DNA of 64,000 nucleotides from Eukaryota sp. GEM-RC1. Its lineage: Eukaryota. Both the position numbers and the translations under genes were made by a program. Shown here one piece after another: positions 17,029-63,919 of this stretch; position 1 is the first letter of the stretch, and every line of letters starts with the position of its first letter. The stretch covers positions 124,001 to 188,000 of the forward strand of contig JAUFOQ010000017.1 of NCBI GenBank assembly GCA_040285855.1. The letters run 5' to 3'. The notes beneath the pieces were generated by a model. The model did not search any database. It was not told the DNA's origin and saw nothing but the letters and a program-made list of their open reading frames with translations.

Positions 17029-18236
17029 TTGACTTTGGTAGACTAATTCTGGAGTTGCTTTTAATGTTCCATCGTTGTAGATTATTTTTCAGAGTTTCAA
17101 TTAAACAATGCATTACAAGCAAAGTTCTTTTCGCTAAATTAAATGTTTACGATTACAAAAAGATTAATAGAACGATCTATTTATAGAAGTGGACAACTAC
17201 GCTTTCTATATGAGAAACTGTTCATACATAAACATCAGGATATTAAGTTGTATCTGGAAATGTGTCTAGTTTTACTGACGACTTCTTGGAGTCTTAGTTG
17301 AGCGACGATTCTTCTATTTTCTCTTCATGAACTGTTTTTGTCCAAATCATGGAATCTTGAAGTAGTAGAGTACTCAAATTACTTTTCTTTACTTTAAGAT
17401 TTTATCAGTACTTTAAGAACATTGTTACTCCGGCATCCACGTGTTCCTATCTACAGTATAAATTAACGACCTTTATGAAGAAATTTCCCAAAAAAGTACA
17501 AAGCTAAACCTCTATATATAGTATCAAGATCATCATTCTTACTACTAAGCCAATGTCTGCTTCATCAAAGAACATGTTTTCAAGTATCAATAGTATCTAA
17601 ACTGTCCAGTCTAGAACTAACAATCGGTTCTTCCTCGAAAAATGCAGTGTTTGCTATTGTTCACGTGTCGACACGATTTACAGTTCATAATGAACAACAC
17701 TGTATGTTTTTGAGATCTGGGTTACTAGTTCCCAAGAAAACACGTCAACACACGTCCCGGTTCCTCCCCTGTTCTATTACCAATCACTAGTGTCCTTGTT
17801 AAATTGAAAATTTAACATGCTAACCAGCCCGTTTTTTAAAAAAACACAACCAAACTACTGAGTAGACAGAATAAGTTCAACAGATGATGAACAACTACCC
17901 GAGGATTTTTTTCAGAAAAAAGAAAAAGGTGTTTTTTAAAAGAGAAGTGAACCTGCAGTGGAGAAACCAAGATTTAACTCAAGGTTCTTGACTAATCAAG
18001 ACCAACTACTGATTGTATTTAGTAAATGCATGTTTCATCCAAAACAATCACGAAGGATATATCACGTGATTCAATGTATAGTACAATTTTAAAATAACAT
18101 CAGAATATAAGAACAGTGGAAATAGTGCAACGAGTTCAATTGAATCCTTTGTTGAATGACTGAATATAATCTCAAATAAGGTTCTAAATTAACACAGTGA
18201 CAAAAAATCCGTACAAAACTGCTTACACAGCTCCAC

Positions 18237-24200: not shown

Positions 24201-27200
24201 TTCAGAAATAAGAGTTTTGGCTTCAGACAATTCAGTTTCTCTTTTGCCAGTTTTAAATTCAAAACATCATTACTTTGAATTAAAGAGGAAATTTGATCTT
24301 TTAATTTAGTCTGAACTTCTTCCTTTTCCATAAGAGTTTGGTTTTGAACTGATTTTAATCTGTCAATTTCATCATTAGTAAGTGACAAATCACTGGAAAT
24401 ACTAGAATTCTCTGTTTTCAATTGTTCTAGAGTCGCTTCTAATTCTACACAAGTAGTGGAAATATTTGAACATTTCGTATTCAGATCAACATTACTATTT
24501 AACAATATTACCAACAGATTCTTCAAATTAGAAACAACAACAGTTACATCAGAAAGCTCATTAACTTGGAAATCAGAAAGTTCATTACGAAGTAAATCCG
24601 AGGACAAATCAGACAAATCATTTTTGATTGAAGACAAAACACCATCAAGATTGGACTGTAGACAGTTCAGTTCTTCAGATTGTTGAGCACCTATTGATTT
24701 CAAGTTTAAATTTTCACTCTGTACTTCCGATAACGTTGAATTTAAATTATTAAATTGTTGATCTAAATTCAATAACTGGGAGTCCCTTTCAGTTAATTCT
24801 TCAGACAATTGATGATTAGTAGTTGACAATTTGGAACAATTTTCTTGTAATTCAGAAATAAGAGTCTTGGCTTCAGATAATTCAGTTTCTCTTTTTGTCA
24901 GATTTAAATTCAACACATCATTACCTTCAATTAAAGAGGAAATTTGATCTTGCAATTTAGTCTGAACTTCTTCCTTTCCATAAGAGTTTGGTTCTGAACT
25001 GATCTTAATCTGTCAACTTCATTATTAGTCAATGACAAATCACTGGAAATTCTAGAATTCTCTGTTTTCAATTGTAGTAAAGTGGCTTCTAATTCTACAC
25101 AAGTAGTGGAAATATTTGAATATTTCTTATTCAGATCAACATTACTATTGGACAACATTACCAACTGATTCTTCAAATTAGAAACAACAGAACTTACATC
25201 TGAAAGCTCATTAACTTGGAAATCAGAAAGTTCATTACGAAGTAAATTCGAGGACAATTCAAACAAATCATTTTTGATTGAAGGCAAAACATCATCAAGA
25301 TTGGACTGTAGAGAGTTCAGTTCTTCAGATTGTTGAGCCCCTATTAGATTTAAATTTTCACTCTGTAGTTCTGATAACGTTGAATTTAAATTATTAAATT
25401 GTTGATCTAAATTCAATAACTGGGAGTCCTTTTCAGTTAATTCTTCAGACAATTGGTGATTAGTAGTAGAAAATTTGGAACAATTTTCTTGTAATTCAGA
25501 AATAAGAGTCTTGGCTTCAGATAATTCAGTTTCTCTTTTGTCAGATTTAAATTCAACACATCATTATATTCAATTAAAGAGGAAATTTGATCTTGTAATT
25601 TAGTCTGAATTTCTTCCTTTTCCATAAGAGTTTGCTTTTGAATTGATTTTAATCTGTCAATTTCATCATTAGTAAGTGACAAATCACTGGAAATTCTAGA
25701 ATTCTCTGTTTTCAATTGTTCTAGAGTCGCTTCTAATTCCACACAAGTAGTGGAAATATTTGAATATTTCTCATCCAGATCAGCATTACTATTTGACAAC
25801 ATTACCAACAGATTCTTCAAATTAGAAACAACCAAACTTACATCAGAAAGCTCATTAACTTGGAAATCAGAAAGTTCATTGCGAAGTAAATCCGAGGACA
25901 AATCAAACAAATCATTTTTGATTGAAGAAAAGACATCATCAAGATTGGACTGTAGAGAGTTCAGTTCTTCAGATTGTTGAGCACCTATTAGATTTAAATT
26001 TTCACTCTGTAGTTCTGATAACGTTGAATTTAAATTATTAAATTGTTGATCTAAATTCAATAACTGGGAGTCCTTTTCAGTTAATTCTTCAGACAATTGG
26101 TGATTAGTAGTAGAAAATTTGGAACAATTTTCTTGTAATTCAGAAATAAGAGTCTTGGCTTCAGATAATTCAGTTTCTCTTTTGTCAGATTTAAATTCAA
26201 CACATCATTATATTCAATTAAAGAGGAAATTTGATCTTGTAATTTAGTCTGAATTTCTTCCCTTTCCATAAGAGTTTGCTTTTGAATTGATTTTAATCTG
26301 TCAATTTCATCATTAGTAAGTGACAAATCACTGGAAATTCTAGAATTCTCTGTTTTCAATTGTTCTAGAGTCGCTTCTAATTCCACACAAGTAGTGGAAA
26401 TATTTGAATATTTCTCACCCAGATCAGCATTACTATTTGACAACATTACCAACAGATTCTTCAAATTAGAAACAACCAAACTTACATCAGAAAGCTCATT
26501 AACTTGGAAATCAGAAAGTTCATTGCGAAGTAAATCCGAGGACAAATCAAACAAATCATTTTTGATTGAAGAAAAGACATCATCAAGATTGGACTGTAGA
26601 GAGTTCAGTTCTTCAGATTGTTGAGCACCTATTGATTTCAAGTTTAGATTTTCACTCTGTACTTCCGATAACGTTGAATTTAAATTATTAAATTGTTGAT
26701 CTAAATTCAATAACTGGGAGTCCCTTTCAGTTAATTCTTCAGACAATTGGTGATTAGTAGTTGACAATTTGGAACAATTTTCTTGTAATTCAGAAATAAG
26801 AGTATTGGCTTCAGATAATTCAGTTTCTCTTTTGTCAGACTTACATTCAACACATCATTACCTTCAATTAAAGAGGAAATTTGATCTTGCAATTTAGTCT
26901 GAGCTTCTTCCTTTTCCATAAGAGTTTGGTTCTGAACTGATCTTAATCTGTCAACTTCATTATTAGTCAATGACAAATCACTGGAAATTCTAGAATTCTC
27001 TGTTTTCAATTGTTGTAAAGTGGCTTCTAATTCTACACAAGTAGTGGAAATATTTGAATATTTCTTATCCAGATCAGCATTACTATTTGACAACATTACC
27101 AACAGATTCTTCAAATTAGAAACAACCAAACTTACATCAGAAAGCTCATTAACTTGGAATTCAGAAAGTTCATTTATGAAGTAAATCCGAGGACAAATCA

Positions 27201-30200
27201 GACAAATCATTTTTGATTGAAGACAAAACACCATCAAGATTGGACTGTAGAGAGTTCAGTTCTTCATATTGTTGAGCGCCTATTGATTTCAAATTTAAAT
27301 TTTCACTCTGTACTTCTGATAACGTTGAATTTAAATTATTAAATTGTTGATCTAAATTCAATAACTGGGAGTCCCTTTCAGTTAATTCTTCAGACAATTG
27401 ATGATTAGTAGTAGACAATTTGGAACAATTTTCTTGCAATTCAGAAATAAGAGTCTTGGCTTCAGATAATTCAGTTTCTCTTTTTGTCAGAGTTAAATTC
27501 AACACATCATTATCTTCAATTAAAGAGTAAATTTGATCTTGCAATTTAGTCTGAGCTTCTTCCTTTCCATAAGAGTTTGGTTCTGAACTGATTTTAATCT
27601 GTCAACTTCATTATTAGTCAATGACAAATCACTGGAAATTCTAGAATTCTCTGTTTTCAATTGTTCTAGAGTCGCTTCTAATTCCACACAAGTAGTGGAA
27701 ATATTTGAATATTTCTCATCCAGATCAGCATTACTATTTGACAACATTACCAACAGATTCTTCAAATTAGAAACAACCAAACTTACATCAGAAAGCTCAT
27801 TAACTTGGAATTCAGAAAGTTCATTGCGAAGTAAATCCGAGGACAAATCAGACAAATCATTTTTGATTGAAGACAAAACACCATCAAGATTGGACTGTAG
27901 AGAGTTCAGTTCTTCATATTGTTGAGCGCCTATTGATTTCAAATTTAAATTTTCACTCTGTACTTCTGATAACGTTGAATTTAAATTATTAAATTGTTGA
28001 TCTAAATTCAATAACTGGGAATCCTTTTCAGTTAATTCTTCAGACAATTGGTGATTAGTGGTAGACAATTTGGAACAATTTTCTTGTAATTCAGAAATAA
28101 GAGTCTTGGCTTCAGATAATTCAGTTTCTCTTTTTGTCAGATTTACATTCAACACATCATTACCTTCAATTAAAGAGGAAATTTGGTCTTGCAATTTAGT
28201 CTGAGCTTCTTCCTTTCCATAAGAGTTTGGTTCTGAACTGATTTTAATCTGTCAACTTCATTATTAGTCAATGACAAATCACTGGAAATTCGAGAATTCT
28301 CTGTTTTCAATTGTTGTAAAGTGGCTTCTAATTTCACACAAGTAGTGGAAATATTTGAATATTTCTTATCCAGATCAGCATTACTATTTGACAACATTAC
28401 CAACAGATTCTTCAAATTAGAAACAACCAAACTTACATCAGAAAGCTCATTAACTTGGAAATCAAAAGTTCATTACGAAGTAAATCCGAGGACAAATCAG
28501 ACAAATCATTTTTGATTGAAGACAAAACACCATCAAGATTGGACTGTAGACAGTTCAGTTCTTCATATTGTTGAGCACCTATTGATTTCAAATTTAAATT
28601 GTCACTCTGTACTTCTGATAACGTTGAATTTAAATTATTAAATTGTTGATCTAAATTCAATAACTGGGAGCCCTTTTCAGTTAATTCTTCAGACAATTGG
28701 TGATTAGTGGTAGACAATTTGGAACAATTTTCTTGTAATTCAGAAATAAGAGTATTGGCTTCAGATAATTCAGTTTCTCTTTTGTCAGTTTTAAATTCAA
28801 CACATCATTATCTTCAATTAAAGAGGAAATTTGATCTAGCAATTTAGTCTGACGATCTTTGGAACTAGATTCAAGTTCGGTAAGGGTCGATGTCAATTCA
28901 GTTACTCTGTTATTTAAATCTGAAACTAAAGTTTTAAGACCAGTATTCTCATTTAAAGTAGTATCAAATTGTGAAGAAAGACTAGAAATAGTTTGATCTT
29001 TGGTCAATATCTGCTGATTTAAAGTGGAGAAGTTTGTTTTAATTTGATCATGAAATTCGTTCATTGAAAACTGCAAATATTCAAACTCATCAGAGTTGTT
29101 TGTTTGAAATTCAGAACAAGAAATATTTAAACTTTTGCCCAAGTTTTGAACTTTTTTAATTAGTACATCAAAGTTTTGCTTCAAATTTTTCAAACGTTTT
29201 GAAGAATAAAACAAATCTAGTTGACACAAATTGAAAAGCTCACTGAATTTCTGTCTAGAGCGTTGTTCAGTGAAGAATATAGTCAGTAAATCATCATATT
29301 TATCAGTCAATTTTAAATATTCAGTAGATTTCAGTGACAACTCATCATTCAGACCAGCAAGACTAGCCTCCGCTGCGGCAGCAGTTCTTTCTGCAACAGA
29401 TTTATCAGTTTCAAGTTTGCCCAATGCAGTATTAGCGTTGTTTAATTGAGTTAAAATACTCTCAATTTCAATTGGTAAATCAGAAATTGAATCAGTAGAG
29501 AGCAAGGAAAGTAGATTAGAGAGGAGCTCAGTTTCTGATTGAAGAGCGGAATATTTAGAAATTTCTTCTAAAAGTTCAGAATCTTCTCCGCCCATTTGAA
29601 TTTTCAGAATTTTGCAAATTTTCTTCAACATTTGTTCAGAGTTTTTACTTTTAATTTCATTTAATTCTGTAGATAAACGAAGATTTTCTTTTCCAATTGG
29701 GACATTTTCTCAAAAACCTCATCATTAACAGATTGAAACCGTATCGGGAAATCGGGAGGAGTCATGAACTCTGGCGTTGAATTAAGAGACAAATGACGTG
29801 ACGATAAAGCCATAGGGGTCCCAAATTGATTGAAGTCATCAACACTTGCCTTTTTTGACGAATCTCTCATAATTTGATCAAAATGTTCATCAGATTTCCT
29901 TGAGAACTTAAGAAACTCATTTCTATCTTTTGGGTTATTCCAACAACTTATAAATCCATCAAAACTAGAAATCCAAATGGTAGATTCTTGACAAGTAATG
30001 GAAGTTACTTTACCAGAATGACCACCAATTTTATAACACAATGGATTTAAAAGATCTGAAATATTTGAAAAATCCCAGACAACCAGATTTCCTTTATCAT
30101 CGCCACTCCATAAAGTTGAACCTGAAGCCATCATAGCAGTTACGTGGTGATTATGATTTTTGACCTCACTCAATAAATCCCCAGTAGAAACGTCATAAAT

Positions 30201-30904
30201 CCTAATCAAACCATTCATTGTACCAACAACTAACAAAGGTGTATAGCCATTGTCAAGAATAGTAATAACGGAAGGGACTTCATCAACTTGCAATTCCCCA
30301 CCGATAGACCTGGTGACTTTAAATGACTCATCAATTTGAAACTTAACTATTGACTTATTAATAACAATGAAAAGTAATTCTGAAAAGCAGTAAAGATTCT
30401 AACAGGATCATCAAATGAGCTTATATCAGAGAGGAAAGTTCCTTCAGTCCTATTGTAAAGTCTAACGTGACCATTGGCAGTAATCACGAAAACACCAAGA
30501 GTAGGCGAATCAAATACAGAGGTAATAGAATGAGAAAAGGAAGAGATACGTTTAACAAGAGAGAAATCGGTTGAGTTGTAGATGATGAGCTCCTTGTTAG
30601 AAGTACCACACCAGATAGTAGAAGGAGAGTTGGTCAAAGTGACACCTGTTAAAGATGTAGGTCTTGATTCGAAGGGAATCGAATGAGCTTGGAGAAGAGA
30701 TTTAGCATCAAGAATGCGTATACAACGGTCACTACATAAGAGGAGAAGGTGGTCAGAAGTGGTAGATAAGGATCGAATTCGTGGAGACTGAGTATTCCCA
30801 AATAATGAATTGTCAGGAGCAAACGAGATTAAGTCTGTAAAGGAGAAGTTAGACTTTATTTGAAGCCACACAGCTGGAAGAGAAGACACCTTGGCAATAG
30901 ACAT
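18237..30904 (-). CDS. Giant WD40-repeat plus long coiled-coil protein, copy B (about 4,200 aa once frameshifts are repaired)
   Basis: Colinear, highly similar paralog of 1681-9160 from MSIAKVSSLPAVWLQ (ATG 30904) to SNFNDGLTSL* (18237); broken into many ORFs by one-base shifts, mostly at homopolymers. Confidence 0.8.
20385..28836 (-). repeat. Coding tandem repeat, 13 units of about 651 bp (two units carry a 6-nt in-frame deletion)
   Basis: Marker GAAATTTGATC (or a one-base variant) at about 20385, 21036, 21688, 22339, 22989, 23639, 24289, 24939, 25583, 26227, 26877, 27527, 28177 and 28826; two units read NLNLIGAQQ instead of NLNLKSIGAQQ. Confidence 0.93.
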
Positions 30905-31029
30905 ATCAATGTACAAGTTGCGACTATGTACATTGAATTTTGTAAAGAATTCTTTTGTATCTTAAAAATACATAAAATCTAAAGACGTAAACAAAGTTAA
31001 CAACACTATTCCATGACATGATCTTGAAC

Positions 31030-31580
31030 CCCAAAGAGTTTCTTCAAAATTCCGTCGAAATACTGGAAACATTGAACGAAATATAGAAAAGACAAAACGA
31101 TCCCTCCAAATAACATTCTTGCCAAATTCGTTTCACAATTGATTAAAAGATGACAAAATCATTTGAGCTGGAGAACCCAAATTCCCATAAATGGAAATAA
31201 CGAATGGTTGAAACACCAAAGCATTGTGTCTTTGTGAATTCAATTTAGAAATATAATCACAAAAATGAAGAAATTTCTTATCTTCAGCATTATCCAAAGG
31301 TGAAAATTGATGATCCAATATTTTACTACAAACAGCATCATTACATGGATCCACAGTGGTGAAATCCAAAACTACTTCTTTACAATTTAACCATAAACCA
31401 ATTAAATCACCACGACTCTTACTGCGAATGAAAGAATCAGAAAATGCCGACAATAGAGGTTCAATTTTACTGTGAAATCGGTTTGAATTATATTCAGAAA
31501 GACATTGATCGCGAATACTGTTATAAAGAACAAAACTAATTCCGAATAAGATCTGAATAAGATTACGTAGCACGGCAGAA
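31030..31580 (-). mobile_element. 3' fragment of an RLE-type non-LTR retrotransposon (restriction-like endonuclease domain)
   Basis: SRGDLIG...VVLDFTTVDPC...AEDKK...FQPFVISIYGNLG...WRDRFVFSIF; similar to the endonuclease region of the element at 61.4-62 kb. Confidence 0.7.
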
Positions 31581-32505
31581 TACGTACGAAATTACCGGGA
31601 CGATCGATACTACTACTAAGGACAAAAGTTCACTTCTAGGACATACATGAACACTTTATATATTCACATTTGTAATATTGTGTAGTTGTAGTACAGTAGA
31701 ATGTTTCACATTCAAACTACTTGTTGTACCCATGTGAATTTTCTTTGCACGGCTTTTCACGTGAATCACCAACACTGTCGATTGAGAAGCATTGTGAAAC
31801 TTGTAAGAGAACAAATTGTTTAGATCTTTTGATTTCATCATTTGGAAAAATAGAAATGTCAATACATGTATGGTTACTTCGGTTATCAGTGCTATGTTAT
31901 CTCTAGGAAGGCTTTATGAAGATGACTAGAATGTAGTTTACAATTTCATGAAATTCGCACTTTCAGGGTATTGAGGATTACAAGCATTTAGTGATTATAT
32001 GTATGTTTGTTGTTCCACTATTGTTGTCGAGATCACTACGCAGTACTAATACAGCATTACGTGTAAATACGATAGTACTAAACCGTTCGTATGCCAAACT
32101 ATGATTTCGACTCATTACAATACAACACTCTCTATAATATCCATGTCCGTACTTTGTATCTCCTTACACGCCCTAGTTGATGGTAGTTGACGTTGCAATA
32201 TGGTAAAATGACGTAGACGACGGTTTTCTTTATTTGACGTGTTATATTGTAGTTATTAGTTGTGCTGTGAAAGAAATTACAGAATTGAATTAAAAAGATA
32301 GGTTCCATTGTTGTTGTGTAACAGTGTTCAATACCAAAAAAACAACAAGAATTGCCAACATATTAGAGTAAAATCAAATAAAAATTTCAATTTAAACTTC
32401 TCGATACCGTTTTAAATAGCCCAACCCAACAAATATAAGTGAAGAAATTAAAAAATGTATTATTCCAATTCCTTGCCATAAAAAACTAAATAAAAAACTA
32501 ACTAA

Positions 32506-39551: not shown

Positions 39552-39627
39552 TGTTAGTACTGGTACAGTACCCTTAAAATAAATTTACTTTTACCTTTCC
39601 ACATGTCCTCTAGATACCTAGACAACA
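39552..39627 (+). repeat. 5' LTR (76 bp)
   Basis: TGTTAGTAC...TAGACAACA; differs from 42896-42971 at 5 of 76 positions. Confidence 0.92.
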
Positions 39628-42600
39628 ATAATTATTATTGGGAATTGATCTAATGAAACAGTTAGGACTACTGACCGAAGACGGACCAGTCATCCGGATT
39701 GACAAGGCCATCCTGGCCACCGTGAACGATGAGTCTGAGTTCGACTCACGCATCATACAACCTCTTTATAGCCATTCTATTGATAACATTGTAGACTTTA
39801 ATACACATGTATTCGATTCAGGTTGCACAATCAAACTAGATGATGATAACAGAGCTAAGAGCTTATTGAGCCTGCTTCAGGAGTTTTATTTTCAACAGCT
39901 CCTCACAAAGACGGCATCGATTGTCCTCCCATGGCGATCGACTTCTACAATGAAGAGTCCACTGTGAGACGGAAACTTCGACGGCTCAATCCAATGAAAC
40001 AGAGGATTGCCGAAGAGATTTTCGATGAACTTGTCCGGCAGGACTTCGCTGAGTTAACAACTTCCAATGGACAGTTCAGTTCACCGGTAGTACTGGTGGT
40101 CTATCCCGATCAACGTAAGCCCCGCCTTACGGGAGACTTCAGTGGTTCCGATGGAATCAACGCATTGACCCGAGTTGTCGAACCGAATCTTTCAAAGATC
40201 ATCGACATCTTGAAATTTCTGAGTGAAGCTAACTTCATAGCGACCTTGGATCTTCCGAAAGCCTTCTGGCAATTGAACCTCGCAGAAAAGGACAGAGAAA
40301 AGACAACTCTGGTAATCCCTGGCAAAGCCATCCGATTTAAAAGAGCTTGTTTTGGATTCAAGAACGTCCCTGCGATATTTCAAAATTTGATGTATGAAAT
40401 ATTCGACCATGAGGGAATATTCATTTACATCGATGACATCATCATAGTAGGCCGTACATTCGAAGAATTTATGAGCCGAATACGATTCGTTCTGACTAAA
40501 GCATTAACACGTAGAGTCAACATTTGGCCTACCCAAATGCCACTTCGTGACAATGAAACATTTACTAAAGATCTTGGGTAGTAAGTTCGTTAACAATACA
40601 CACAATATTGACCCATCGCGTATCACAGCTCTCCTAGAGTTGCCCGTACCAACCACAATCAAAGAAGTTTGTAGCTTCTTGGGTTCGATAAACTACATAA
40701 AAGACTTTATCCCAGGTGCGTCAGACCTTCTGGCTCCAATCATCAACTTAGTCAAGAACAACGGTCGTTCAGTAAAATGGACCCCACTCCATCAATCTAA
40801 TTTTGAGACAATCAGAAATAAGATCATCAATCACATGCCCCTCAGTCTACCAGACAGGGATCAACGCGTGCTGATCAGTGAAGACGCCAGTGATATTGCC
40901 GTATGTGGTGTCATTTGGCAGGAAATACCTCCCAACGCACAAGATGGAACTCCTTTAAACAACAGGACAGTTATCCCACTAGCTTTCTACAGCAAACTCC
41001 TCACGGAATCTCAACAAAACTGGGCAACAATTCAGAAAGAGTTTGACGCTATTGTTCTGATCCTAACGGAATCACCCATGTCATCATTTCTCCTAAGCAG
41101 GGATCTAACCATCTTTACTTTAGGAGAAAAACAGAGTATTCAAGCGTTGGATACCTATCCTAAGCGAATTCCAATTCTCAGTGATCCACACCGTTGGAGC
41201 AGACAACTACTGGGCAGACATGTTATCTCGAAACATTGAAAACTCTCAACCCGAAAATATAAACCTAGTCACATCTTGCCCTGAGCCGATGGCCTATATC
41301 GTACTGATGACGATATGGAATATCAATCACTGACCACCGAGTGAATCAACATGATTAGTGAACCATTAATCAACAAGTCAAAAATCTTTGACATTTGGCT
41401 ATCCAAAGTACGCTCCACACAAGTAGAAGCCAAGAACAACAACGACGTATTGTTTCAGCATCCCACTGCTGTATACAATGAAGAGCTCCAGCTATTCCTA
41501 AATAGCCATGGTAAGATACTCATCCCTATGAGCCTCCGGACAACCACGATTAACCACATCCATGGTTTTCCTCACGCAGGCCACCCCAGCCTAAGAGTGA
41601 GCATTGATCGGCTAAACTCTAGTGACTATTTCTGGCCTAAGATTGCCAAAGATATGAAGAAACACTGCATGCAATGTCCAGCTTGTCAAAAGACAGCTCC
41701 CCTTGCTAAACTCAAAATCAAACCATCAGGTAACCTTTGGGCAGACAAACCATTTGCCAAAATGAATGCCGACACCATTGGACCTTTGCCGACAGACACC
41801 ACCGAGAACTGTCACCTCCTCGTATTCATAGACTCGTTTACCCACTATACAGTCTTATGTCCCTTGAAGGAGCTCAATGCTTAAGAAACCGATCATGCAT
41901 TAGTGTGTAATGTATGTGCCATCTTTGGTATACCTCACCTGATTCATGGCGATAATGGCAAGGAGTTTGCCAACCATGTCTTTAATGGCGTGTGTCAGGC
42001 TTTTGATATCGATACGGAGAAATCCATCCCCAGTTTTTCGCATAGCAACGGATTAGTGGAACGTCGCCACAGAGACATCCTGCAGTCATTAAGAAAGATG
42101 CTTATCGATTTTAATGATTACGACAACTGGTCCAAGTACACTCCAATCGTACAACTGTTAGTTAACACAACTAAGAGTAGAGTGACAGGCTTCACCCCAT
42201 CCCAACTCATATTTGGATCAGCCACCAGCCCTGGTAGCGATCCTAGCAAGATCCTAGTTTGTCTCTCACAGGAAAGCCAATCAGAAGATTCCTTCCTGGC
42301 AGATTATCAATTTAAAATTCAATGAATTTTGAAAAACCGGGAAGAGGTAGAGATCAATCAATCTTCCACTCAACCCGTGATAACTGCCGAACCAACCTCG
42401 TCGTCTCTGTACTCGAGTGGAGACTTGGTTCTTAAAGCTTACTCCAAAACTAAGAAGCTTCATGGTAAGCTCAAAGGTCCATTCCTGGTCCTCGACACGC
42501 CTACTGCAAGCTCTCTTACCTTACAGAACATTATCACTGGACACCAGTTCAAATCTAGTGTTCACCAATGTAAGAAATACCTTACTGACAAACCCTCGTC

Positions 42601-42895
42601 TGACGAGTTCCACACAGCTGTTGCCGCCTGTGACTCAGAGGAAATGGTTGTGATTAAGGTGCTGTCCCAATCCGATTCATCCTCAGCACCTGTGTGTTCA
42701 GTCGTCTGGTTTGATGGCGATACCACCGAGGTACCTTTGGATCAAATAAAGAATACAAAAGCCTATTCGGAGTTTATTAAATCTAATCCCTCCTATAAAC
42801 CATCTACTAAAAAGAAACGAATTGTTCAGGGTAGTACCAGCCGTGCCTCTCCACCTGCCAAGAGGACCAGGTCCTCGAGAAAGGGGAAAAAATAG

Positions 42896-42971
42896 TGTTA
42901 GTACTAGTACAGTACCCTTAAAAGAAATTTACTTTTACCTTTCCACATGTCCTTTAGATATTTAGACAACA
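42896..42971 (+). repeat. 3' LTR (76 bp)
   Basis: Direct repeat of 39552-39627; begins immediately after the pol TAG stop and the polypurine tract. Confidence 0.92.
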
Positions 42972-55862: not shown

Positions 55863-56378
55863 ATGAAAGTCTTTCTAGTAATTACTTTGCTTGTTGTACT
55901 CGCTTTTGCAGGATGTCGTTGTCCGCGTACATGTTCTTTCGGGTATTCAGGATCTATTGTTCAATGTTTCTGCTGGTGTCAACAAATCGCCAGTTCAATA
56001 CATGCATCACCTGATGCCAGGTGTACTCATTTCCCCAAGGGTACCTTCAGTTCCGGTGGTTGTTCCCTTTGTGCTTCTAACATCAACAGTCTCAGTAAAG
56101 ACACCGCAGCAGTGGAAGTATTTGAAAAGAGTCTGTCAGAAGCCATAATGGGAGTCGGGTCTAACAACTCCATGATCTTCCCTCTTCGTCGTTGTAAATG
56201 TCCTGGAAACTGTAATTGGGGTTATTCTGGTTCATACAATAATTGCGTATCTTGGGCCCAAGCTCAGTATTCCAGTTTCTTGAAAGGTCAATATACCATC
56301 ACATACTTCCCTCGTGGAATGTATTCTTCAGGAGGGTGTACTATCTGTGGTCAGACTGACCCTTGTCATCCCTTTTAA
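55863..56378 (+). CDS. Secreted Cys-rich protein with two tandem related domains, paralog 1 (171 aa)
   Basis: Signal MKVFLVITLLVVLAFA; two CxCP..C..GYSG...C..W.Q...FP.G..SSGGC..C units separated by a linker ending in RR; equal-length paralog at 60483. Confidence 0.88.
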   Translation: MKVFLVITLLVVLAFAGCRCPRTCSFGYSGSIVQCFCWCQQIASSIHASPDARCTHFPKGTFSSGGCSLCASNINSLSKDTAAVEVFEKSLSEAIMGVGSNNSMIFPLRRCKCPGNCNWGYSGSYNNCVSWAQAQYSSFLKGQYTITYFPRGMYSSGGCTICGQTDPCHPF

Positions 56379-57051
56379 GAGTGTTTTCTGATTGATTATG
56401 AGAGATTTGTGTTCTTTATTTCACTCTTTTCAAGAGATCTTTTCTACTTTTAATTTAGAGTATTTCAAACAGCAAATGTACCCGACTATGTTAGTTAGTC
56501 TGTTGTGCTGGGAGTTTCCAGTCATTATATGTACTTTTTGTGAAACAACTTTAAGATGAAGTGGCTACGTTTGTGTGATTTAGATTGGTTTTGATCTGTT
56601 TTACAGTCACTGTATACAATGAACAATTATTCGAAGCAACTTTTGTTCGGTTCAAATGGTGACATTGCCACAAATACAGGAGTTTGGAATAACAACAAAA
56701 ATGCATTGTAATTAGGTGGACAAAACTACTTTCATCCAAAATGCTCAATGCAATCAACACTTATGGAATGAACAATTATACACAGTAAGTGGTAGAAAAT
56801 GTATGAATCAGTTTTCCCACACATTCTTTTGTCACAAATTTACTATGTATTTTGTAATTTTTGTGTTTATTATTCTATAACATTGTATGATTTACAGGAG
56901 GGACTTTGTAAATTATTAATCTGTTTTGAGTAAATGGAAACTAATGAGGAAAAAGTGAAACAGTTTTTTGCTCTAACGGTTTATAGAGTAGTGTGTTCTC
57001 AAAATCTATATAAGACCACACATTGTTGAGTGATGTACAAGAAATAGCGTA

Positions 57052-57163
57052 CAGTACACTATTTGCCGTACACTACCGTAAATTACAGTACGGCACTATA
57101 CTCAGTATCCGTAAAATACGGTAACTGTAAAAATATCGAAATTATTTACGGCAAATGTTACCG
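57052..57163. repeat. Short TA-flanked palindromic element (MITE-like)
   Basis: ATTTGCCGTA (57061-57070) / TACGGCAAAT (57147-57156); internal CCGTA/TACGG repeats; TA on both sides. Confidence 0.5.
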
Positions 57164-58218
57164 TAGTGAGATATATAATACTCTTTTACATACCCCGTAA
57201 ATCGAAACATCAAAGCATTCTTGATCATTTTCATGAGTTCTGTAACAGCTGAGCCATTTTTTGTTGCATTCATTAGTACTTAAAAGAAGAGAATTGACTG
57301 GGTCGGATACATGACAAGAGCTGAAATACTTAGAAGTTGGTACAACCTTATTGTTTTTATTAATCAAATGTGATAATCCTGCTAAGACAACTTCAAAAAC
57401 CGTGCTATGTTGATGATCCTTCGTTCAGGTAGAAATTGTATCAACTCTTTTGGTTAACGAAAAGGATGTTACATATAGTTGTTTGGATTGAGGGATCTTA
57501 TTTTTGTAGTTGTTGAAAAACTGTCAGAACGTGTGAACATGAATACCCATTCTTTAAGGGATTAAGATGAACATGATAGGATCTATACATAATAAGAAGT
57601 TTTTCAATAATACAGTGTATTAAAACGTTCTAATATTCGATCGAAAAAATACATAATGAGCTCATGATTAATAACACTCTAGACAAATTGATTAACATAG
57701 AATCAAAGTGAACATTTACTATACACAACGCTGTCAACTTGATGATTGAGCAAAGAACGGATTCTTAAGTTGAATCTTATGAGATTCAATCCAAAGGGAC
57801 TTCTTCGTCTGGATGGATTAGTTGTTGAAGGAGAAGCGAAGTTTGGATAGAATGTCTTCTCATTAGTAAATGATTTCCTCATTGGAGAGCCCTAGGCAAA
57901 GACTTGAACATCACAAGGGGAAGCAGGGCTAAAGAAACTGTAAGGGAGATGCTAAGAAACAAGAAGTGGGATGACTAGCAGGAAGTGGTGGGTGTATGGA
58001 AGGAATCTAGAAGGGAAGTTGGCAATAGGATACCGAGAGCAAGTGATGTAGGACTAAGAGAGTCAGAGCATTGCAGATACATAGGATGAGAAGACCTAGG
58101 ACTAGCAAATGAGCGCGTAAGACAAGGCTACAAATTTTAAAGGTGTGGCTATAACAGGGATGGGAAACTCAATATGATGAAAGGAAAGTGATTATGGTTG
58201 ACCGGAAACTTCGACACC

Positions 58219-60151
58219 ATGGCACAACCACGTAAGTGTTTCACTCGGTCGTGTGCTCTGAACTCGCTGCTTATACCTTCAGCAGTTCACCAGATTCGGT
58301 CTGACATTCCATTCTAATGTCACCGAAGTCTGCCATGAAGCTTCTTTGCTTCTTCATTCTTTCCTTGTCACTTTCCCTATAGCGGCCAGAGCTATTGCGG
58401 AACAGGATGTCTGGTATCTCTTTATGACCGTCATCAACAAAAGTAGCTTTCCTGCTCCTCAAACTTCGAAAGGACAAAGGCTTTTGTTGAATGTTTTCTA
58501 TGATGGTTTTCTTCCAGAGTCCCCTGCTTCTTTTGTTCCTCCTTTTACTTTGGAACACCAAAACTTTTTAATTTCTGAGTGGAATTCTGATATACTCACT
58601 TATGGGTTACTCCTCCAGAATTTCTTGAACTCCTGGCTAGCCACACAGACCTTTTCTGTGGTGAATAGCCCTAATCTTTCTCAGTGGTTTACTTGCCGTT
58701 CTCGTCAGTTTGCAGCTAATGTTAAGTCTTCTCTGCCCAAAATATCCAGAGCTTGGATTAAAAATTTTCTATATGCCCATTGTCGGGTCATTGAGACACC
58801 TCCTCAATTTTCTTCGCATCTTCTTTATCTCTTTTATAATCTTCCATTTAATGCTCCTTCTTTTGTTAATGTTTCCATTGACAATCAGTCCGAAAAAATC
58901 TTTTTACTTAACGCTGTCTATTTTATTTTCCATCTTTTCGATCGTTTTCCTGTCTCGGAAGGACTTTTATCTTCTGCTGACCACATGAATGTTTCTCCTA
59001 AAGAAATTCGTGAATTGTTTATCTTTAACCTATCAATTGCACAATTCTTAGAAACATATTTAAGTGATTTTTCCCATTGTTGGAGACGGCTCCGACTGAT
59101 CCCCCTAGCTTCTCACAAAGGGTCAAAACTGTTGGATATACCTCCAAACATCTTCAGAAATTCTACCAAATTTCCGAATGGTACAAGATCTGGAAGATTG
59201 TTCATTTCCCAACGAATTTTTAAAACCTGTCCACATTCAAAGTTTCGAATGTGGAACAAAAATTATAAAAAAAATAACAAGAAGCTAACACTGAAAACCA
59301 ACGGAAATGAGCTTCTGATCACCTTCCACAGGACTGAGCCAACCTTGGAGAAAGAAGGAGAGCCGCCAAAAAAGAAAAAGAGGCGGACAAAACATGAGGT
59401 GCAGCAAGAACCTAAAGCCAACTGCATCAAATCCATCAATTTAAAAAGATCGAAGAAGCAGCCTCGCCGTCGCCCTCCAACTGCCCAGGAGATTATCCCT
59501 GAAGGCCCATTAGTGGGTGTGGATCTTGGTCAGTCACGTCTTTGTGGTTACTATTTGAATGAAGAAAACCACGGACTGATCAAGTGTCCTACAGGCCGCC
59601 AGTTTCGAACAAACCCTTCTCCTCACAAAATGTCACCGAACCAATATTCCGTGCAAAATATTCACCTATATTTGAATCACTGGAATTTGGTAAGAAAACA
59701 GGTGTATAAAGAGAGTAACCGGTCGAAGTGGAAGTCGATTAAGTTCGACAATCGAAGACGCAGAGAACGCCGCTTTCGTGAAGCTCTGAATACTTTCCAA
59801 GAGATTTCTGGTCATCCAGAGGAACTGTATCTGGCTGTCGGCTCAGCAAACTTTCCTTCCCATTTCAGGAAAGTTAAAAGATATGGATCAGCTCGATGCT
59901 TTCGGAAATGGCTGAATCACCAAAAAGGAGTAAAACACTTTCCCACCAGTGAATTCAACACTAGCAAACTGTCAAGCTGCTGTATGTCTCTAAACGAAGC
60001 AACCAGATGGTGGCAAATGAGAGTCTGTGCCAACTGCCATCAAGTATATGACAGAGATGTTTCCGCTGCTAAAAATATTCAGACTAGGAAGAAAGCAGAG
60101 TTGTGGCCTGGAAGATACGTCTGTCCTGAGGTAATGTCGAGGAGAGTCTAA
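58219..60151 (+). CDS. Fanzor (Fanzor1-like eukaryotic TnpB homolog), RNA-guided endonuclease; about 643 aa with one frameshift near 58308 (continuous frame 58262-60151)
   Basis: RuvC-I VGVDLG (D 59522), LAVGSANF, RuvC-II TSEFNTSK (E 59951), Zn finger SCC...CANC, RuvC-III DRDVSAAKNI (D 60056); N-terminus SCALNSLL...NVTEVCHEASLLLH; basic NLS-like PPKKKKRR and KRSKKQPRRR. Confidence 0.9.
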
Positions 60152-60460
60152 TGGAGAGATCGGTAGAAATGATAAACAAAACCACTTTGAGACCGATCTG
60201 GTGATGTATCTATCCCGGTAGATATGTTTGTCAGGTCCATTTAGATAGATTAAGTCTAAGAAACTTTGTTCTGTGTAAGCGGTGTAAGCTGTGTAAGCAG
60301 TCGGTCTATCTAAGTGATGTAGCCCGTTGATGAAGATCATGATTATCTTTGTCAGATGACGCTATATGTCTCTTACAACCTGTGAAAACAGGAGTGAATT
60401 TCATAATTGGGAGTAAGCAGTTGTTATGAAATTCACAGTACGTGAATGATCTGTCAATTC
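60152..60460 (+). ncRNA. Candidate Fanzor omega-RNA (scaffold plus 3' guide); boundaries inferred
   Basis: Consecutive hairpins after the Fanzor stop: 60157-64/60192-99, 60195-60237 (alternative to the first), 60238-51/60303-16, 60328-37/60345-54, CCTGT-GAAA-ACAGG 60379-60392, 60394-407/60423-36; many G-U pairs in the + sense. Confidence 0.6.
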
Positions 60461-60482: not shown

Positions 60483-60998
60483 ATGAAACTCGTTTTTGTT
60501 ATTACTCTGTTCATTGCACTGGCTTTTGCTGGTTGTCGATGTCCGGGTTCTTGCTCATTTGGATATACAGGAACTTCTCCACAGTGTTTCTGTTGGTGCC
60601 AACAAACTGCTAGATCAGTCCAAGCAAGACCTGATGCAAGATGTACTTACTTCCCTAGTGGTTCCTTCAGCTCTGGTGGATGCTCTCTTTGTGCTTCTAA
60701 CATTAACAGTCTCACCAGCGAAACTTCTGCTACCGAAGTCTTCGAAAAGAGCCTTTCAGATGCCTTAATTGGAGTCGAAACCAATAGCGGAATGATCTTC
60801 CCTGTTCGTCGTTGCAGATGCCCTGGACGTTGTGAATGGGGTTATACAGGTTCATACTCAGCATGTTCTTCTTGGGCCCAATCTCAGGCTTCTAGTTTCT
60901 TGAATGGGCAATATACAGTGACTTATTTTCCTCATGGAATGTATTCTTCTGGAGGATGTAGTGTTTGTGGTCATACTGATCCTTGTAAGACCTTTTAA
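60483..60998 (+). CDS. Secreted Cys-rich protein with two tandem related domains, paralog 2 (171 aa)
   Basis: MKLVFVITLFIALAFA-GCRCP...; ungapped alignment to 55863-56378 with the cysteines and the RR site conserved. Confidence 0.88.
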   Translation: MKLVFVITLFIALAFAGCRCPGSCSFGYTGTSPQCFCWCQQTARSVQARPDARCTYFPSGSFSSGGCSLCASNINSLTSETSATEVFEKSLSDALIGVETNSGMIFPVRRCRCPGRCEWGYTGSYSACSSWAQSQASSFLNGQYTVTYFPHGMYSSGGCSVCGHTDPCKTF

Positions 60999-61100
60999 GA
61001 GTTTGCGATAGAAGACTGACTGTTATGACAGAACTTACACAACCTTATTTGTAAAGATAGTTTTTAAAGAAAATATTTTTCTGACAACAACACTACAGTG

Positions 61101-61373
61101 CAATGTTCGAAGACACGCGTGGACTTGTTTGGACACGCAGACACGTTTGGACATGGACACGGTGTCTTGTGAAAAACACGCAAAAGACACCGCATATGTT
61201 TGTGTTTTTCTGCAAAAACCTAGAAAACTTCGAAAGTACCCTTTTATTTCCCTCAATATTAAAAAATAATAAGATATATATCATCTTATTAAATAACAAA
61301 GACACCGTGTGGACACGCGTGTTAACACCGACACGGTGTCTTTTAAAAAACACGTGGGAAATTTCGAACACTG
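61101..61373. mobile_element. hAT-type MITE inserted in the 3' tail of the non-LTR element
   Basis: TIRs CAATGTTCGAA / TTCGAACACTG (10/11 match); 8-bp TSD CTACAGTG (61093-61100, 61374-61381); GACACG repeats; empty site at 11159-11166. Confidence 0.92.
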
Positions 61374-62950
61374 CTACAGTGTACATACATCTGATAATCA
61401 ATATCCTCAAAGTCCAGACTGCTTAACTGGAAATTTTCACCTACCTTATCCTCATAATGTCTGCCAAGAGATAATAAAGCGCTAGTTACAGAAGTCACCA
61501 TACCTTTAAAGATAGCAAACACGATTCGATTTTTCCAAAATCTGAGATCAAAAGTCCTAGATGTTTTTTCTTTAACAATCTTCACAAAGATTTCAAGTAA
61601 TGATGTTACAGATTCACCTAAAGAACCGTATAGTGAAAAGACAAAGGGTACAACAAGTAATTCGAGTGTGAAGCCGAATTCAATAGTTTCAATTTATCAA
61701 CATATTTTTGCATTTTATATTTTTCACTAATCAACAAGGGGTTTTTAGCATTAGATTTAGCAAGTTTCTTGTCAGAATCATTACAAACATCGATAGACAT
61801 AACATCAGCAATAATGAAAGATCTATCAAGACCAGGAAATATGACATCACCACGGCTATTTCCAAACGATTTGTCAACATCTGTGTCATCAAACAAACCA
61901 GCCAGAACTGGTTCTAAAAAGGAAACTATTCCATAAGATTTACACATACAATATAATTGATCCCTTACTGAATCATGAACCTTACTTCCAAAAAAAACGG
62001 TTACAATTCAATAACTGTGTAGGTGTTACAGATTGCCCACATTGGCATTTCAAATTACGTGGAAGGTTATCAGGCCAAATATATGACCGTAAACGCATGT
62101 TTAATGACCAAGAGTTATCATCAAGAAGAAGACTGTAAACTTGAGGGATTTGTGTAATCAGACATGAAGCAGAGCTATTAGAAACATCCGTTTAGAAATT
62201 TGCAAATGCGGGATTTTTTTCCTTGAGCGTGCCAAGCCGAACATTATAATCCAAGCTTTCAAAAATATTTGTGAGTTTCTGTCGTAATTTTTTCAGACAG
62301 AACTGAAGATTAGTCAAACATCTTTCAGGTATTTCAGACACAGATTCTGGGAAACATTGGGACCAAACGGGAAAAGGTAATTTGATTAACGCTTTATTTA
62401 AGTCAAATAAATATTTACATGAATTGGGGTTAATAAGTGAAATAACATTAGGAAATCGATTAACAAATTCAAAGACGAAATTTTTTCCACCGCCTAAAAA
62501 AGCAGATTTGCAAAGAATTGAAGATTTGGTAAAACCAATACCACCAAAATGAGCAGAAGTAAACAAATGACTTCTAAGTAACGTTGAATCAACTTCTAAC
62601 AATGAAGCTAAAAAATTAATCCTTAACTCGTTAAAAGATCTACAAAAGTTCAGAGCGATTGAAGGACCAGTAGATCTCAAAAGATGTGTGATTTTTTCGG
62701 AGTAATAAATTTTTAAAATACAAAACTTGATATGTTTTTCAATATCATATGAAGAAATTGTGTTGAGTTCTGAACCAGTTTTTTCCAAACAATTAGATAA
62801 TTCTTGAGAAGTTTTAGGAACATTCCCAAGACAACAACCTAGAAAACGAAAAGCGTCTTCAACATAATTGATAAATAGAATCTGAACTCCATTAATAAAT
62901 AATTCTTGTGTAGATCTAACAATTAATAAACATTTGTTTGGGTTCAGAGA

Positions 62951-63919
62951 CATAGTTGCAAAATACAAAATACAGTATTTTTTTGTATTCTGTATTTTTC
63001 TGTATTATGTATTGTATTTTTTCTGGAAAAGTGTATTATGTATTTGTATTTTTTGTATTTATTTATCAGCCCGAAAATCCCTTCAATTGACGAATATGAC
63101 TCAAATCAATGAGAGCAACACTCGACAGCGGATCTTTCTGATCAATTGTACTATTGTTTGGTACAATTGGGCCATGTATTATTTTCACTCGCAGAAATAC
63201 TAGTACAATTGTCTGCTGAATTTTCGGAACGTTCCAGTACAGTACGTCAACGGCGTGTGCTAGATGACTAAAAAGTGAAACACCGATCAAGTCAAGTAAC
63301 AAAAATTTGGAAACGCTTAATAACGTTCATTCCAAAGAATCGAAAAGTACCAAACCATGTGAAGTTGTGCAATCTAGTTTCACTACTGTCAGTCAGTGAT
63401 GAAGATCTAAATCCCTGATGAGACGAGCTACACGACACTCAGATTGATCCTGTTTTGAAGATCTACTTGTTGTCTTTGGAGACTATGATTTCGAGTTTAT
63501 ACATTTTTACCTACAATCGATATATTAAGACGATTTACAACTAATGTACAAGACAAAAAGTGTGCAAAGTCACATTGAATAACTGTATAACTCCACGACA
63601 GTTCTTTCCGTGGACCAAATGAACATTTGAACCCTCGGTGCATTTCAGAATCGAAATAACAATTGGGTTGATAAATGAAAAGAAGTTCAAGAGTGCGTAC
63701 CGAAGACGTGAACCATGATAACCCTGATGATCAATCACGTTTGCAGTCGTTGGACTCAATACACTTGGTTTAATACTTGCAATTACTAGAAAAGGAAATA
63801 CAATTAATACAGTATTCTGTATTGTATTTGTATTCTGTATCTGTATTGTATTTTTGTATTCTGTATTTTTTGTATTCTGTATTGGATTATTTTTTTTGTC
63901 CGTGTATTTTGCAACTATG
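62951..63919. mobile_element. Non-autonomous hAT element inserted into the RT coding sequence
   Basis: Perfect TIRs CATAGTTGCAAAATAC / GTATTTTGCAACTATG; 8-bp TSD TTCAGAGA (62943-62950, 63920-63927); TGTATT subterminal repeats; removing it rejoins GLSLN-PNKC. Confidence 0.93.

Follow-up and report, generated by a model that had tools for sequence, protein, structure and literature searches.

Fanzor-type proteins from other organisms have been shown to cut DNA under RNA guidance. Here we examined a gene of this type in a stretch of 64,000 nucleotides (nt) from Eukaryota sp. GEM-RC1 (contig JAUFOQ010000017.1, positions 124,001 to 188,000 of the forward strand; assembly GCA_040285855.1), called the window below and used for all coordinates. 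A preceding sequence-only reading had described positions 58,219 to 60,151 as a Fanzor nuclease gene with a complete catalytic triad in a protist with tiny introns. Our analysis indicates that it is probably a damaged member of a young mobile gene family with many copies, in which the whole sister copies encode a divergent Fanzor1-like protein, likely an RNA-guided DNA nuclease. Papers are cited by their PMC identifiers.

The Fanzor gene of the window is split between two reading frames

Copies were compared as proteins or gene models from three genomes, labelled Eukaryota sp. GEM-RC1 (GEM), TZLM1-RC (TZLM1), which we take to be Skoliomonas litria, and TZLM3-RCL (RCL). GEM-RC, TZLM3-RCL and Skoliomonas litria are skoliomonad metamonads from soda lakes (PMC11316075). 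Whole reading frames were found in P0015 (646 residues), P0011 (648 residues) and P0022 (651 residues). The coding features of the window copy are as follows.

58219..58317, plus strand: N-terminal Fanzor frame from ATG to a premature TAA, encoding FTRSCALNSLL; P0015 and P0002 agree with it at every position of residues 1-31 (100%)
58303..58320, plus strand: frameshift, net +4 relative to the paralogues, at a short CATTC/CATTC tandem repeat (tblastn of P0015)
58316..60151, plus strand: main Fanzor frame (REC, WED, RuvC and TNB), 97.4% identical to P0015 residues 32-646
59159..59329, plus strand: dimorphic WED block, allele A in the window copy, equivalent to P0015 residues 313-373
59207..59222, plus strand: in-frame loss of four residues (NEFL) within the WED block (paralogue alignment)
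59297..59305, plus strand: TNG, counterpart of the Fanzor1 WED 'TDG' motif defined in PMC10711439
59369..59473, plus strand: basic linker with two clusters resembling nuclear localization signals, KKKKRR (59369-59386) and K.SKKQPRRR (about 59444-59473); putative localization function
59522..59530, plus strand: RuvC-I Asp in a DLG motif (alignment)
59840..59842, plus strand: Gly at the canonical TnpB RuvC-II Glu position (alignment A6)
59951..59953, plus strand: E-alt, the relocated Glu of RuvC-II, opposite E541 of SpuFz1 in the alignment
59972..60037, plus strand: TNB zinc knuckle SSCC ... CANC, with Ser for the first canonical Cys (Pfam and alignment)
60056..60058, plus strand: RuvC-III Asp (alignment)

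The C-terminal motifs that the sequence-only reading had listed in order are indeed collinear in a single frame over 59513-60079, where we located VGVDLG (59513-59530), LAVGSANF (59831-59854), TSEFNTSK (59945-59968), SSCC (59972-59983), CANC (60026-60037) and DRDVSAAKNI (60050-60079), and the two basic clusters noted just ahead of RuvC-I are likewise present. All six motifs lie in a stop-to-stop frame of 629 codons (58262-60148) whose first in-frame ATG is at 58424. An intact gene starting at 58219 was not confirmed, as the ATG at 58219 belongs to a different frame that ends at the TAA at 58315 (codon 33). In agreement with this, tblastn with P0015 splits the locus between frame 1 (residues 1-31, 100% identical) and frame 2 (residues 32-646). 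The N-terminal CxLNSLL and EASLL patterns that had been reported both exist, but in different frames. The annotated product, P0007, is 575 residues long. It begins at 58424, and the initial 67 residues, among them the FTRSCAL strand and the EASLL helix, are missing from it.

Introns of 27 and 28 nt occur in two nearby genes, so the description of the host as a tiny-intron protist is correct; the gene with the 27-nt intron is presumably a short-chain reductase and that with the 28-nt intron presumably of Brix type. A tiny intron that would mend the frameshift was sought and rejected: all ten in-frame GT-AG candidates are 43-109 nt long and delete residues kept in all three species.

The window copy probably yields no working protein

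The WED lesion, which was not visible to the sequence-only reading, reads NEFLK in one frame of the DNA and RIFK in another, which fits the loss of one unit of a short tandem repeat, and the same repeat loss is seen in P0052 on another contig, there as a frameshift. The window copy also alters L163, Y356 and G413, where the other aligned rows that span these positions all carry L, a hydrophobic residue and G, respectively. In the basic linker, which extends for about 60 residues ahead of RuvC-I, the motif LKG.KK is kept in the GEM, TZLM1 and RCL species and its G is changed to R in the window copy. Because the annotated product misses the first WED strand and a REC helix, we consider it likely from these comparisons that the window copy yields no working protein. 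The frameshift at codons 32-33 and the deletion in the WED helix leave the earlier 'possibly active' unsupported for this copy, and the phrase applies instead to P0015 and P0011. Nor is the gene a preserved exception among decayed transposons, as had been proposed; it belongs to a mobile family in which some copies are broken and others whole. The RNA tail of the window copy could still guide a whole paralogue in trans.

It is unlikely, in our estimate, that both breaks are assembly errors and that the cell has the window copy in whole form, as an active nuclease gene in its own right. Residual errors in repeats are suggested by 14 sister models (12 from three TZLM1 groups, two from GEM) that end at four shared points, where the codons are of the kind found in runs of A or T, the relatives' genomes are Nanopore R9.4/R9.5 assemblies with Illumina correction (PMC11316075), and the WED lesion is in part one extra C in a C run. 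The N-terminal break, however, is a net four-base change at a short duplication and not a homopolymer slip, the WED repeat loss recurs on a second contig, the copy carries its substitutions at otherwise conserved sites, and a fully whole protein would require both lesions to be errors.

The protein has a split RuvC domain of the TnpB/Fanzor/Cas12 superfamily

The C-terminal region scored 26.9 bits against Pfam PF07282 (cut-off 26.3 bits, E 5e-6) and, because this score lies above the cut-off, the motif match goes beyond chance. The complete D-E-D triad claimed by the sequence-only reading was recovered as D 59522, E 59951 and D 60056, and together with the TNB zinc knuckle this split RuvC triad places the protein in the TnpB/Fanzor/Cas12 superfamily. 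In alignment A6, which has 21 rows, Gly 59840 falls in the column occupied by the canonical Glu in three of three prokaryotic TnpBs and Glu 59951 falls in the E-alt column (as E-alt is defined in PMC10711439 and PMC10530073), which bears out the proposed relocation of the RuvC-II Glu to the E..TS motif with a small residue at the TnpB position. As in Fanzors, the E-alt Glu stands six residues before the zinc knuckle. The knuckle itself reads SSCC or SGCC in all three species, with Ser for the first Cys and an extra Cys after it, where Fanzors have a CCCC zinc finger.

A fold comparison, which the sequence-only reading had proposed as a check, returned RuvC/TnpB-type matches with both Foldseek and VIA-align. 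The C-terminal 216 residues were modelled with a predicted local distance difference test score (pLDDT) of 78 and a predicted template modelling score of 0.72. The 28 PDB matches listed by Foldseek (E up to 0.001) were all of TnpB, Cas12 or Fanzor type, and the best query TM-score among them was 0.59, for SpuFz1. VIA-align superposed 181 residues on SpuFz1 with Z 12.6 and a root-mean-square deviation of 4.0 Å. Since the top Z values are tied, the modelled fold establishes the superfamily and cannot name the subfamily (Fanzor1, Cas12 or TnpB). A full-length AlphaFold model, built from 12 near-identical rows, reached a pLDDT of 31 and was not used.

The family is best described as Fanzor1-like

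A TDG motif in the WED domain is a hallmark of Fanzor1 (PMC10711439), and its counterpart is the TNG at 59297, with SDG in RCL family 2. Whole copies have 646-651 residues with RuvC-I at residue 438, in keeping with the size of Fanzor1 (about 600-800 residues) and with a predicted REC1 insertion. Size, TNG and the long helix between RuvC-I and RuvC-II point to Fanzor1, at the level of sequence comparison. In addition, a profile that included outside Fanzor1s (A7) found SpuFz1 as its best PDB match, with E 3e-11 from the WED TDG strand to RuvC-III, and these observations together support the Fanzor1-like identity put forward earlier. Fanzor2 and the IS607EU type, at about 400-500 residues and with a short RuvC insertion like that of TnpB, are a poor match: the distance from RuvC-I to a conserved Trp is 69 residues, against 30 in the Fanzor2-like L005, and no Pfam family, including a serine recombinase partner, was detected in the six frames upstream of the window copy.

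Several results weigh against a straightforward assignment to Fanzor1. The top VIA-align Z values are shared by Cas12o, Cas12X, PpFz1 and Cas12f (12.6-13.7), and a profile built solely from skoliomonad proteins matches only TNB domains in the PDB and not SpuFz1, so the SpuFz1 profile matches depend on the outside Fanzor1s. In a 14-row tree, drawn by midpoint and omitting P0055, which has no RuvC-I, the skoliomonad rows form one clade (99/98) on a long branch that joins the other Fanzor1s weakly (64/50); the phylogeny that had been suggested as a check thus confirms the clade and leaves its placement weak. RuvC-I reads DLG in the GEM and TZLM1 copies instead of the DPG of most Fanzors, which the RCL members have, and the SSCC knuckle departs from the Fanzor CxxC pattern. 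Finally, the REC2 stretch is about 21 residues shorter than in outside Fanzor1s, with pLDDT below 50 there: RuvC-I and the conserved Trp are 68-69 residues apart in the three species, compared to 90, 90, 91 and 106 in four outside rows. Given this shorter spacing, one of the two kinked REC2 helices of Fanzor1 appears to have been lost, and the C-terminal model has a single kinked REC2 helix (51-71 and 74-103). Because DLG, the shorter REC2, SSCC and the basic linker depart from Fanzor1, the alignments favour calling the family a Fanzor1-like variant rather than a plain member of Fanzor1.

DLG, the shorter REC2 and SSCC could mean a lost nuclease, that is, a family that binds DNA under RNA guidance, cuts it poorly or not at all and acts as a regulator or helper, which we regard as clearly unlikely. 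DPG is near-exclusive in Fanzors (PMC10711439), N385 of SpuFz1 is a metal ligand where the window copy has Gly, and the residues missing between RuvC-I and the conserved Trp are present in four of four outside Fanzor1-type rows. Yet the three species, at 32-59% identity, keep all three acidic residues, active TnpBs normally have DLG, Gly at the second position after the Asp is the rule in DPG Fanzors, and the RCL relatives combine DPG with an equally short REC2.

Much less probable still is a separate capture of a prokaryotic TnpB with a D-phi-G motif and E-alt, in which case the family would not be Fanzor1. DLG with E-alt is the signature of a prokaryotic clade (PMC10711439), skoliomonads eat bacteria and the tree support for a grouping with Fanzor1 is weak; but the skoliomonad proteins form one clade with the DPG-bearing RCL proteins, and they share the Fanzor1 features of 646 residues, a long REC insertion, TNG and a Fanzor1-type helix between RuvC-I and RuvC-II, an interval of 20-30 residues in TnpBs and Fanzor2 compared to 69 in the window copy. 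Moreover, a HMMER search of 1.84 billion representatives gave 27 matches, of which the three weakest (P0054, P0055 and P0056; E 5e-5 to 6e-4) are non-skoliomonad E-alt proteins that align with Fanzor1, P0054 being from Amoeboaphelidium protococcarum. The remaining 24 were looked up in part, and every source so checked was skoliomonad.

Copies are numerous in three skoliomonad genomes

We retrieved 15 GEM gene models, P0007 included, with non-adjacent locus tags on 7 contigs, which shows at least 15 dispersed loci at 88-99% identity; the full-length GEM paralogues P0015 and P0011 are 93-97% identical. One cluster holds 11 gene models, and there are clusters of 82, 27, 9, 8 and 5 models plus singles in TZLM1, some of them fragments of one locus, and clusters of 9, 4 and 3 models in RCL. 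The setting is therefore that of a Fanzor, eukaryotic (introns of 27-28 nt nearby), multi-copy (15 dispersed GEM models) and mobile. The long open frame, the host genes on both sides and the lack of a nearby transposase might suggest that a single host gene has been domesticated and serves the cell. We give this next to no credence in view of the dozens of dispersed, near-identical and mostly fragmentary copies in each of the three genomes; a retrotransposon splits one TZLM1 copy, and the models of some others run into unrelated genes.

Searches of metagenome and viral contigs with P0015, A1, P0054 and L006 recovered no DNA of close relatives. A profile search (A4) of contigs found six distant loci, three of them canonical TnpBs, and the top three Atlas clusters (score 0.97-0.98) are TNB-bearing, mostly viral proteins of 656-804 residues. 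The earlier view of a divergent protein from a poorly sampled host lineage is supported. Fanzor1 in a metamonad has already been published, as three Aduncisulcus paluster rows in the supplementary table of PMC10432273, in which skoliomonad names are absent. The available main text of PMC11316075 contains neither 'Fanzor' nor 'TnpB', and a literature search pairing Fanzor with metamonads, with most subscription papers outside its scope, returned no paper.

GEM copies carry two WED alleles

Eleven of the 15 GEM models span at least part of the block equivalent to P0015 residues 313-373, and they fall into two types, allele A in five models (including the window copy) and allele B in six. P0015 (A) and P0011 (B) are identical at 38 of 61 positions inside the block (62%) and at 574 of 585 outside it (98%). 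A stretch of 65 residues holds 24 of the 32 variants that occur in at least two copies, compared to a maximum of 13 in 20,000 random placements; as the block was picked after inspection and the variants are linked, this statistic shows one block and not 24 events. Both alleles are equally distant from TZLM1 (32/61 and 31/61), and the 13 TZLM1 copies compared have one WED type. The flanks of the block are mosaic, with the B copies differing at 279-282 in three patterns, one of which is that of A.

The non-conserved portion of the WED domain holds a helix that contacts the target-adjacent motif (TAM) and may evolve to change TAMs (PMC11423790). In SpuFz1, the WED residue R291 contacts the TAM and lies 37 residues before TDG; an equal offset leads to residue 326 of P0015, within the block and, as mapped by offset only, adjoining the deletion of the window copy. 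By this comparison the block likely reads the TAM, and the weakness of the argument is that it rests on a residue offset and not on structure. Because of the position of the block and its mosaic flanks, the two alleles would each confer a TAM preference of their own while using a common scaffold, and would be swapped between copies by recombination. The natural pair P0015/P0011 could directly test the proposal on variable WED domains in PMC11423790 and may reveal a swappable specificity module.

A structured tail follows the stop codon

The region downstream of the coding frame contains the following features.

60152..60445, plus strand: candidate omega-RNA scaffold with five stable helices (folding; putative identity)
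60203-60228, 60238-60316, 60317-60367, 60379-60392 and 60394-60436, plus strand: scaffold helices (pair probability >0.8)
60186..60206, plus strand: non-coding motif FETDLVM, the sole FETDL in six frames of the 64 kb

Positions 60149-60460 fold with -94.4 kcal/mol (z -4.96; 0 of 100 shuffles as stable), and among 56 tiles of 300 nt across 30150-63450, the one after the stop has the lowest minimum free energy (two runs with 15 shuffles each gave z -3.2 and -4.0). The signal needs the whole 300 nt: 150-nt windows downstream gave z values of only -0.9 to -2.7, and some coding windows folded better than that. In TZLM1 model P0025, translation past the stop yields FETDLQM, and its spacing from the stop is close to that of FETDLVM in the window (one motif, one copy). 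We consider that the tail is likely an omega-RNA scaffold, by folding and by analogy with SpuFz1 (PMC10432273), and that the right end of the element likely lies just past the last hairpin (60394-60436), which ends 46 nt before the next host gene.

Two results speak against this interpretation, namely that one tile of a long terminal repeat (LTR) element folds about as well (z -3.8) and that no element ends or target duplication were found. An Rfam search of the tail returned no match, and comparison with 1.8 kb upstream revealed no matching ends beyond what chance yields (scores equalled in 100-268 of 300 shuffles). Positions 57080 and 60429 share a 13-nt direct match, which was considered as a target duplication and rejected as chance. 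No Exo1 remnant, transposase or second Fanzor was detected in 56400-58300 (tblastn, two Exo1 profiles, a Fanzor profile and Pfam, in six frames).

Upstream of the gene, a palindrome-rich segment of about 100-110 bp (57057-57168) starts with CACTA (57057 and 57071), ends with TAGTG and has a terminal inverted match of 10/11; it resembles a miniature CACTA element, occurs once in the window and has no target duplication.

RCL gene models show an Exo1-Fanzor fusion

P0062 of RCL (1323 residues) has XPG_N and XPG_I domains, matches human Exo1 with E 3e-38 and keeps the five acidic motifs of animal Exo1 rows, and its Fanzor half is homologous to P0015 over the full length (28% identity, E 2e-80). 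P0060 and P0057 show a junction like that of P0062, P0058 also carries the Exo1-Fanzor arrangement, and P0048 and P0068, members of another family at about 30% identity, retain the linker together with the last part of Exo1. These fusions were seen in gene models, with a predicted intron possible at the junction. In one family, DVEPNPG directly precedes the Met of Exo1, like a 2A motif (D(V/I)ExNPG-P) but with the final Pro missing.

The window copy and the TZLM1 copies each have a start Met of their own and are not preceded by Exo1. The midpoint-drawn tree puts RCL outside a group of GEM and TZLM1, and the head is present in two RCL families that have diverged from each other; the simpler reading of the sequences is therefore that the Exo1 head was lost in the GEM/TZLM1 line. 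A search for other Exo1-Fanzor fusions, limited by word seeds and length, found none among 12 matches to proteins of 727-2316 residues with both domains. By title and abstract, papers pairing Fanzor with Exo1 or FEN1, or TnpB with an exonuclease, were reviews or engineering studies; other Fanzor supplements may list fusions, and the available main texts of PMC3627910 and PMC10530073 do not mention exonuclease fusions. Exonuclease fusions may sit unannotated in published Fanzor data. By eye, XPG-like motifs can be made out at the N-terminus of KAI3658238.1 of Amoeboaphelidium occidentale (1219 residues; row 630 of supplementary file 3 of PMC10432273).

Comparison with known systems

The closest characterised likeness is to SpuFz1 (PDB 8gkh; Spu-1 elements of Spizellomyces punctatus; Saito et al. 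2023, PMC10432273). It has 638 residues by chain offset compared to 646, an E-alt RuvC, a TDG strand in the place of TNG and a C-terminal zinc knuckle, and it is encoded by one open reading frame (ORF) without a transposase, in many whole and partial copies per genome, with a structured non-coding region after the stop. However, the C-terminal domains are only 15-18% identical, SpuFz1 has DPN where the window family has DLG, and the shorter REC2, SSCC and the long basic linker before RuvC-I are peculiar to the latter. The SpuFz1 scaffold measures 75 nt, compared to a candidate RNA region of about 290 nt in the window; no terminal inverted repeats were found for the window copy, and the family has two WED alleles within a genome, unlike SpuFz1.

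By sequence, the nearest non-skoliomonad relatives are P0054 and the metagenomic Fanzor1s L002 and L006. In common with the window family they have the KW..L.F helix, E..TS, RD.AA.N and a G where the canonical Glu would stand, but are only 17-25% identical and retain the first REC2 helix and CxxC. L006 (1069-4216) and L002 (1379-3958) are whole metagenomic Fanzor1 genes with an N-terminal CxxC knuckle. The ORF ahead of L006 presumably encodes a Tc1/mariner-like protein, with DDE motifs seen by eye, and the window copy has no such ORF. The Fanzor1s of Aduncisulcus paluster (GKT27103.1 and two further rows; PMC10432273) also come from a free-living metamonad host, but carry DPG and CPxC and were absent from the sequence matches here. 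With the TnpBs of IS200/IS605 and IS607 and with Cas12f (PF07282; NF040570), the window family has the RuvC-TNB fold in common, and differs in its Gly for the canonical Glu and in large REC and WED insertions; its NCBIfam score of 22.8 bits is far below the 100-bit cut-off.

Neighbourhood of the locus

Two paralogous small Cys-rich proteins (55863-56378 and 60483-60998, plus strand) bracket the Fanzor gene, 4620 bp apart and with 76% DNA identity. Both have a signal-peptide-like start and two internal repeats (CRCP..C.FGY.G), and match no Pfam family. A frameshifted non-LTR retrotransposon lies at 61346-63004 (minus strand), and its family also occurs at 31070-31591 (minus strand) and interrupts a Fanzor copy in TZLM1 model P0070; we take the element at 61346-63004 to comprise a reverse transcriptase C-terminus, a zinc knuckle and restriction-like endonuclease motifs. 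An insert at 61096-61434 resembles a miniature inverted-repeat transposable element, with internal GACACGGTGTC palindromes, and its part 61374-61434 is repeated at 11159-11219. Further away, a decayed LTR retrotransposon (39552-42971) shows reverse transcriptase, RNase H and integrase motifs by eye and has 76-bp direct repeats at its ends, and a gene with WD40 and coiled-coil regions forms a large inverted duplication (1681-9163, plus strand; 18234-30961, minus strand), which holds a tandem array of units of about 650 bp and has many frameshifts in its second copy.

Discussion

Taken together, our results are best explained, with good if incomplete confidence, by a mobile gene that is young and present in many copies, of which the window holds a broken one, whereas the product of the whole sister copies is a divergent Fanzor1-like protein, likely an RNA-guided DNA nuclease. 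These whole sister copies, and not the window copy, would be the candidates for programmable nucleases. One published result tells against this expectation, since assays of a Fanzor1 that is multi-copy in Chlamydomonas detected no cleavage (PMC10530073).

If the family works like characterised Fanzors, the tail would be transcribed through the right end of the element, and some 15 nt of the adjoining DNA would thereby serve as the guide. The protein would bind the tail RNA, enter the nucleus by means of its basic linker, read a short TAM with its REC and WED domains and cut empty alleles of the insertion site, and repair from the occupied allele would then copy the element back, by restorative or intron-like homing. 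Movement to new sites would need a transposase in trans, because none adjoins the window copy. Analogies for these steps are found in PMC10432273 and PMC11423790, and in the gene-conversion restoration model of PMC13565253.

A more specific proposal is tentative, and we think it rather doubtful as a whole: the family would be a transposase-free homing element whose Fanzor swaps its TAM-reading WED block between two specificities, with an older form, kept in two sister-species families, that carries a fused Exo1 resection nuclease. If this were true, it would amount to a natural cut-and-resect editor with an exchangeable module akin to a protospacer-adjacent motif reader, in which the fused Exo1 steers the break towards homologous repair. 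As the hosts live in alkaline hypersaline lakes, their enzymes may withstand unusual conditions.

Thousands of Fanzors are known and another broken copy matters little, so the value of the locus lies mostly in the allele pair and the fusion to which it led. The natural Exo1-Fanzor fusion resembles engineered exonuclease-Cas fusions, and it bears on how eukaryotic OMEGA elements (obligate mobile element-guided activity) spread, that is, on homing by recombination.

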